Assembly: GCF_044324785.1 (NCBI RefSeq) | Contig: NZ_CP172127.1 | DNA: 64,000 bases | From: Escherichia coli | Lineage (GTDB): Bacteria > Pseudomonadota > Gammaproteobacteria > Enterobacterales > Enterobacteriaceae | Strand: one strand, 5' to 3' | Shown: one piece after another, positions 55,632-56,810 of the stretch | Position numbering within the stretch: position 1 is the first letter of the stretch | Layout: every line of letters begins with the position of its first letter | The notes under the pieces: generated by a model | What the model saw: the letters and a program-made list of their open reading frames with translations, nothing else | Database searches by the model: none | Told to the model about the DNA's origin: nothing | Position numbers and translations under genes: made by a program

Positions 55632-56810
55632 ATGACTGCTGTAAGCCAAACCGAAACACGATCTTCTGCCAATTTTTCGCTCTTCCGCATCGCTTTTGCG
55701 GTTTTTCTCACCTACATGACCGTAGGGCTGCCGTTGCCGGTGATCCCGCTGTTTGTTCATCATGAACTGGGCTATGGCAACACCATGGTCGGCATTGCCG
55801 TCGGCATTCAGTTTCTGGCTACGGTGCTGACGCGTGGTTACGCCGGGCGACTGGCCGATCAATATGGCGCAAAACGTTCGGCGCTTCAGGGGATGTTAGC
55901 TTGTGGTCTGGCTGGCGGCGCGCTGCTGTTGGCGGCGATTTTGCCCGTCTCCGCACCGTTCAAATTTACCCTGTTGGTCGTCGGGCGTTTGATTCTTGGC
56001 TTTGGTGAAAGCCAGTTACTGACGGGCGCTCTGACCTGGGGATTAGGCATCGTTGGGCCAAAACATTCCGGCAAAGTGATGTCATGGAACGGAATGGCGA
56101 TTTACGGTGCCCTCGCTGTTGGTGCGCCGCTTGGCCTGTTGATTCATAGCCATTACGGTTTTGCCGCACTGGCGCTCACCACAATGGCATTACCCTTACT
56201 GGCGTGGGCCTGTAACGGCACAGTGCGCAAAGTACCGGCCCTGACGGGAGAACGTCCATCGCTGTGGAGTGTTGTCGGGCTTATCTGGAAACCAGGGTTA
56301 GGTCTGGCGCTACAAGGCGTTGGTTTTGCGGTTATCGGGACTTTCGTTTCGCTCTACTTTGCCAGCAAAGGATGGGCGATGGCGGGCTTTACTCTTACCG
56401 CGTTTGGCGGCGCATTTGTCGTGATGCGCGTCATGTTTGGCTGGATGCCGGACCGTTTTGGCGGCGTGAAAGTGGCGATTGTCTCTCTGCTTGTAGAAAC
56501 GGTGGGCTTGTTGCTGCTCTGGCAAGCCCCTGGTGCGTGGGTCGCATTAGCGGGCGCGGCGTTAACCGGAGCCGGATGTTCGCTTATCTTTCCTGCGCTG
56601 GGCGTGGAGGTGGTTAAACGCGTCCCCTCACAAGTTCGCGGCACCGCATTGGGCGGTTACGCCGCGTTTCAGGATATCGCCCTCGGCGTCTCCGGGCCGC
56701 TGGCGGGAATGCTGGCGACCACGTTTGGTTACTCTTCGGTATTTCTTGCCGGGGCGATCTCTGCGGTGCTGGGAATTATTGTCACGATACTGTCGTTTCG
56801 TCGGGGTTAA
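55632..56810 (+). CDS. yfcJ: MFS-family membrane transporter
   Basis: 392-aa polytopic ORF; stop codon overlaps the flk stop on the opposite strand. Confidence 0.88.

Follow-up and report, generated by a model that had tools for sequence, protein, structure and literature searches.

The genes yfcJ and flk lie tail to tail within a window of 64,000 nucleotides from Escherichia coli (the whole stretch of DNA analysed), and the features of the locus are itemized in Table 1. At the junction the bases T56807, T56808, A56809 and A56810 form a tetramer that holds both TAA stops together, that of yfcJ on the plus strand and that of flk on the minus strand (the context is ...cgt cgg ggt TAA cga..., with 56800-56813 reading gtcggggTTAAcga). 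Coming from yfcJ, the last codon GGT, of which T56807 is the third base, is followed directly by the stop codon at 56808-56810. Coming from the other side, the last codon of flk is CGT, the complement of its third base is A56810, and the stop codon is the reverse complement of TTA at 56807-56809. The two central bases (TA) are common to both stop codons, and the coding sequences overlap by 4 nt. The tetramers able to hold two opposed stops number four (CTAA, TTAA, CTAG and TTAG, together YTAR), and the junction is a 4-nt convergent overlap in the strict sense, with opposed protein-coding genes and both stops inside one such tetramer. The original prediction was that TTAA carries both stops, leaving zero intergenic space; the window sequence, the list of open reading frames and RefSeq all agree with the first statement, and the second follows from the 4-nt overlap.

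Table 1. Features of the flk-yfcJ locus, in window coordinates
Feature	Position	Strand	Source
yfcJ coding sequence, MFS transporter, 392 aa	55632-56810	+	ORF list, RefSeq, NCBIfam, Pfam MFS_1
Small hairpin and U-run (CCGCATCGCTTTTGCGG TTTTTCTC), about 55-78 nt into the yfcJ coding sequence	55685-55709	+	Terminator scan
C-rich, G-poor flk read-through RNA (antisense to yfcJ), candidate Rho loading region	56248-56520	-	C/G, GC skew
Near-consensus Pho-box-like PhoB site, TGTCACGATACTGTCGTT (K-12: ...TCATT), in the 3′ end of yfcJ	56780-56797	+	ChIP-seq, sequence match
YTAR-class tetramer TTAA with both stop codons	56807-56810		Window sequence
flk coding sequence, flagella biosynthesis regulator Flk, 331 aa, hydrophobic C-terminal segment	56807-57802	-	ORF list, RefSeq, NCBIfam, homologues
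Hairpins in yfcJ read-through RNA, flk 3′ coding region	56858-56894	+	Terminator scan, RNA fold

Three RefSeq records of E. coli, those of BW25113 and MG1655 among them, have the identical 4-nt overlap (in MG1655 flk is at 2437950..2438945 and yfcJ at 2438942..2440120). The locus is found in 5,422 of 5,426 complete E. coli genomes at an identity of at least 95%, and the region in the window shares 98.6% identity with K-12 and 99.5% with the best-matching isolate. YfcJ matches the NCBIfam model NF009048 over 1-392 of 392 (E = 6.6e-212), and residues 2-330 of Flk match positions 1-338 of 339 in the NCBIfam equivalog NF007987 (E = 2.3e-152). Since both proteins fit full-length models as far as the C-terminus, a misplaced stop is improbable in either gene.

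Two other features of the window may be mentioned. A 411-aa open reading frame at 54237-55472 on the minus strand runs antisense to all of fabB; it is a mechanical shadow reading frame, and is unannotated in the records examined. At about 25221-29234 there is a strain-variable spot, where about 2.4 kb lies between aligned blocks, compared with about 5.5 kb in the closest reference. The extra DNA of the reference is the sucrose (csc) cluster, adjoining a tRNA-Arg gene (window 29163-29234, minus strand).

The modal length of convergent overlaps is 4 nt, and 58 convergent overlaps have been counted in E. coli (PMC2174442). At the level of transcripts, 3′ ends overlap in 276 of 370 E. coli convergent operons (about 75%), with a mean of 286 nt, even where there are terminators (PMC4161252), and the missing intergenic terminator is therefore not special. 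Among the 165 convergent 'excludons' present in at least 50% of 58 MG1655 transcriptomes is flk-yfcJ itself (ExcludonFinder 2025, PMC12288877). Over the equivalent 64 kb of a related genome, fewer than 10 nt separate the stops at 3 of 11 convergent junctions. The flk-yfcJ overlap is thus real, evolutionarily old and already known, from its annotation, from the described class to which it belongs and from a published list of overlapping transcripts; the arrangement is real yet ordinary.

A second tight convergent junction is located at 2699-2706 of the window, where the stops TGA and TAA are only 2 nt apart. It is formed by an open reading frame at 206..2701 (plus strand), encoding an 831-aa phosphotransferase-like protein, and one at 2704..3561 (minus strand), which is ypdC in the annotation of a related genome.

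One genome per species was scanned with an alignment of Flk, giving 80 loci in each of which both stops were placed. The -4 register is kept in Escherichia (E. coli, E. albertii, E. whittamii and the cryptic clades), most Citrobacter, Yokenella and Intestinirhabdus, as well as in Salmonella enterica subspecies arizonae and diarizonae and the group around isolate RIT691. Other strains and genera contribute 31 loci with the same register (TTAA, CTAA, TTAG or CTAG), and it is kept despite an identity of Flk between genera of only about 60%. The central TA is invariant in the overlap loci, and the outer bases toggle by transition, each change switching one stop between TAA and TAG. None of the 62 stops in these loci is TGA, and 17 of the 62 are TAG. 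In the loci with a spacer TGA is a frequent stop, and the wobble bases on either side are free to vary.

The protein ends are homologous with or without a spacer. Flk finishes with the end of its hydrophobic C-terminal segment (...FWLVx-stop), and YfcJ (...FRRx-stop) two to three residues past its last membrane helix. The final residue is variable in both proteins (R/S/A/V/L/F in Flk and G/S/A/P in YfcJ). The persistence of the -4 register can be put down to selection on protein length combined with the YTAR constraint.

The -4 state is found in several separate lineages of a neighbour-joining gene tree with midpoint rooting, and this distribution suggests that the overlap is old and has been repeatedly interrupted. 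A spacer of 18-340 nt separates the genes in Enterobacter, Leclercia, Lelliottia, Pseudocitrobacter, Cedecea and Buttiauxella, and is composed for the most part of REP/BIME-like palindromes or simple hairpins. Additional genes, spanning 1.5-2.3 kb, lie between flk and yfcJ in Kosakonia, Phytobacter and a few others.

Inverted REP/BIME-like palindromes (gcccggtggcgc...cttaccgggcctac) take up the space between flk and yfcJ in Enterobacter, Leclercia, Lelliottia and Pseudenterobacter. Examples are loci L033 (5009-5101), L060 (5006-5086) and L052 (5006-5345), the last comprising about four tandem palindrome copies over its 340 nt. Target-site duplication was considered as the origin of the spacers and discarded, as the junction bases have no consistent pattern. 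In Citrobacter amalonaticus S646 (L019, 5006-7330) flk is separated from yfcJ by a 2.3-kb insert encoding a 440-aa membrane permease-like protein and a 259-aa regulator-like protein (types judged by eye). The insert is not an insertion sequence, holding two ordinary genes instead, and the interruption would be recent since close relatives retain the 4-nt overlap. One locus, L059, carries the title Chryseobacterium sp. 18061, yet its flk-yfcJ locus is of Enterobacteriaceae type and almost identical to that of Citrobacter sp. 18056 (L062) from the same study; the assembly is probably mislabelled or contaminated.

The account that we favour, and consider likely, is that two independent genes overlap tail to tail by 4 nt in an ordinary and evolutionarily stable way. 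Both protein ends would be fixed, that of Flk where its hydrophobic segment finishes and that of YfcJ shortly past the last membrane helix; with no spacer and both ends kept, the junction could therefore only be YTAR, with TA locked and the outer bases free to toggle between TAA and TAG. The overlap itself would be neutral or a by-product of compaction, retained by selection on protein length.

As there is no intergenic DNA each mRNA must run into the partner gene, as originally predicted, and transcription can terminate inside a convergent partner. The overlapping coding sequences alone dictate that the transcripts share 4 nt or more. Published RNA-seq (PMC12288877) agrees with what the geometry requires. 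If the overlap is an ordinary one, the read-through tails would end inside the partner gene with no dedicated conserved terminator. The tail of flk would most likely be ended by Rho, acting on the untranslated, C-rich RNA antisense to yfcJ within the first several hundred nucleotides. Untranslated RNA that is C-rich and G-poor is the usual substrate of Rho. The read-through RNA of flk has this composition, with C/G of 1.75-2.31 in 78-nt windows compared with a 95th percentile of 1.71 for the background of the window, and of 1.27-1.53 over 600 nt in 30 of 30 overlap-class loci. The yfcJ read-through RNA has it weakly, its C/G averaging 0.91 and peaking locally at about 1.7 some 380-455 nt past the stop. 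The tail of yfcJ would be less defined, probably ending at a weak E. coli-specific hairpin, in the C-rich patch about 380-450 nt downstream, or by polymerase collision. From composition, then, we infer Rho-dependent ending of flk transcripts and a less sharp ending of yfcJ transcripts.

The published table of Rho regions (Adams et al. 2021, PMC7815308) has no bicyclomycin-sensitive site at the junction. Its single entry for the locus is in the sense direction near the 5′ end of yfcJ (MG1655 2440043, minus strand, Rho score 5.8; supplementary file 2), with 236 reads upstream and 15 downstream, the latter becoming 98 with bicyclomycin. The best position of this region coincides with the small hairpin located early in the yfcJ coding sequence (Table 1). 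The conserved RIAFAV codons account for the stem of the hairpin, and the U-run is confined to Escherichia, so that the hairpin may be a by-product of coding; a conserved attenuator near the 5′ end of yfcJ was rejected for the same reason.

An alternative is that yfcJ has a terminator embedded in flk. The hairpins at 56858-56894 would then form a terminator, pause or collision site, and the overlap of the transcripts would be short and fixed at about 50-90 nt. A terminator-like site is indeed returned by the scan, comprising a 7-bp stem at 56858-56874 followed by the poor U-tract CCATATTTTG, and a stronger 11-bp stem lies at 56865-56894 in the same (yfcJ-sense) direction. The longer stem is stable, and folds better on the yfcJ-sense strand, where there is a G-U pair in place of the C-A mismatch of the other strand. 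In an alignment fold of eight Escherichia sequences it is partly kept through G-U pairs. A rho-independent terminator inside the partner has moreover been predicted for 20% of E. coli convergently overlapping genes (PMC2174442). However, the 11-bp stem has no U-tract, and the fold of the 106-nt stretch at the hairpins is only marginally better than that of shuffled sequences (z = -2.25). Among the eight Escherichia sequences no pair is changed on both sides (covariation term -0.75 kcal/mol), an E. coli-like locus (L009) breaks one pair, and the hairpin has no counterpart in other genera such as Citrobacter and Salmonella. Terminator-like sites within 250 nt past the stop are found in the yfcJ sense in 5 of 31 overlap loci, against 2.95 expected from shuffles, and in the flk sense in none of the 31. 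A search for a G+C-rich hairpin with a U-tract on both strands gave just a weak yfcJ-sense candidate at 56858-56884. On the strength of these scans and folds a conserved terminator embedded in either gene was rejected, and the E. coli hairpin is unlikely to be a yfcJ terminator. Neither flk nor yfcJ has an RNA 3′ end in the Term-seq tables of PMC7815308, and none is listed antisense to flk, though low expression could hide such ends; the SMRT-Cappable-seq supplement has no entry for either gene.

No Rfam family is present at the junction, sub-threshold matches being confined to the fabB-yfcJ spacer. The spacer downstream of fabB (55377-55476) contains a REP-like palindrome with a sub-threshold match to Rfam naRNA4 (34.8 bits, compared with a gathering threshold of 59.5), after which there is a hairpin terminator, AAGGGAACC-TGAT-GGTTCCCTT.

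The missing spacer might instead have been selected, making the pair a functional excludon in which mutual exclusion would come about through polymerase collision and through RNase III cutting the duplex of the two 3′ ends. The pair lies within the E. coli 'excludome', and excludon pairs as a group are co-expressed less frequently in single cells (ExcludonFinder, PMC12288877), which leaves room for a regulatory role; the long conservation of the overlap, in several genera, would also fit selection for coupling. Against this, yfcJ yields little RNA in minimal medium (163 normalised reads; PMC10294691), and the stronger the opposing promoter, the greater the repression that convergent transcription causes (PMC4731013). 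REP elements, simple hairpins or whole genes are tolerated between flk and yfcJ in many Enterobacteriaceae, and the conservation of the register is explained by the protein-length constraint alone. Neither gene appears in the supplements of the p19 dsRNA study, a method that captures few 3′-end duplexes, and the paper on YfcJ function mentions neither flk, nor polarity, nor the overlap. A functional excludon is improbable. Antisense interference between flk and yfcJ, which the original prediction had raised, is putative and probably small, and its weakness would follow from the low expression of yfcJ. Nothing found points to a special function or to coupling of flk and yfcJ expression via the overlap.

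The idea may be extended to a selected device, in which Flk and YfcJ would be made mutually exclusive by convergent transcription and, in E. coli, by a phosphate-dependent roadblock of PhoB; we regard this as very unlikely. The PhoB site is nevertheless strong. In K-12 MG1655 there is a ChIP-seq peak at 2438961 with a score of 8, ranking 7th of 65 and the highest of the purely intragenic sites (PMC10294691), and the near-consensus Pho box ends 10 nt before the yfcJ stop, pointing in the yfcJ sense and into flk. Under phosphate limitation PhoB could on this basis block both polymerases at the junction, or drive a transcript antisense to flk. Binding is however not matched by PhoB-dependent transcription. 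The RNA of yfcJ is unchanged on deletion of phoB (163 versus 187), and such sites have been classed as transcriptionally inert (PMC10294691). No plausible -10-like hexamer follows the Pho box in the window. The box in the window has one mismatch, its second half-site being altered by a synonymous A-to-G change that is shared with other strains, and the box occurs only in the E. coli and E. albertii loci. A role of PhoB at the junction is hardly credible in view of these data, although a strong PhoB site close to the stops is left unexplained by an ordinary overlap.

That the overlap is an artefact of annotation or sequence, with the true stop of yfcJ or flk located elsewhere, can be given practically no weight, as the same geometry is present in independent records and 5,422 genomes, both proteins are full-length against their family models, and both C-termini are homologous across at least 60 species, whether or not the genes overlap; the gene ends, whose revision would have undone the original prediction, stand as annotated.

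As an ordinary overlap of two independent genes, flk-yfcJ provides a clean example of opposed stops long locked in one YTAR tetramer, with TGA forbidden, and it illustrates that many E. coli genes have no private terminator. Its importance is slight and mainly a matter of bookkeeping. Were flk and yfcJ coupled through the overlap, the control of flagellar assembly would gain one small regulatory link, and if the pair were a functional excludon the expression of a transporter would be tied to flagellar checkpoint control.

The arrangement can be compared with several known systems. Where Rho suppresses antisense and read-through transcription, the RNA resembles that of flk past its stop, which is untranslated, C-rich and G-poor; the yfcJ read-through RNA differs from a classic Rho substrate in not being C-rich. 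The overlapping bidirectional terminators of Ju et al. 2019 are located between genes, and reportedly give uniform 3′ ends on both strands. They too serve convergent genes that have no canonical unidirectional terminator (Ju et al. 2019; bioRxiv 10.1101/2022.10.23.513370), and flk-yfcJ likewise has a hairpin in the region crossed by both polymerases. In contrast to them, flk-yfcJ has no intergenic DNA, its hairpin is weak and E. coli-specific, and no sharp 3′ ends are recorded.

With the excludons and overlapping 3′ untranslated regions (PMC12288877; Conway et al. 2014, PMC4161252), among which it is listed, flk-yfcJ shares opposite-strand neighbours with overlapping transcripts. Excludons are defined by mutually exclusive expression and RNase III processing, whereas flk-yfcJ is listed for its transcript overlap, and here it is the coding sequences themselves that overlap, beyond the untranslated regions. 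The mscL-arfA pair is similar, being an E. coli tail-to-tail pair with overlapping 3′ ends on the same excludon list; antisense RNA crosstalk is reported for mscL-arfA (PMC10070815), while for flk-yfcJ it is the transcript overlap that has been published. The closest relative is the class described by Lillo & Krakauer 2007 (PMC2174442), which has the same geometry, with opposed stops in one YTAR tetramer and an overlap of the modal length. There is no difference in kind between this class and flk-yfcJ, which adds to it the persistence of the overlap across genera, the use of all four tetramers and the exclusion of TGA.
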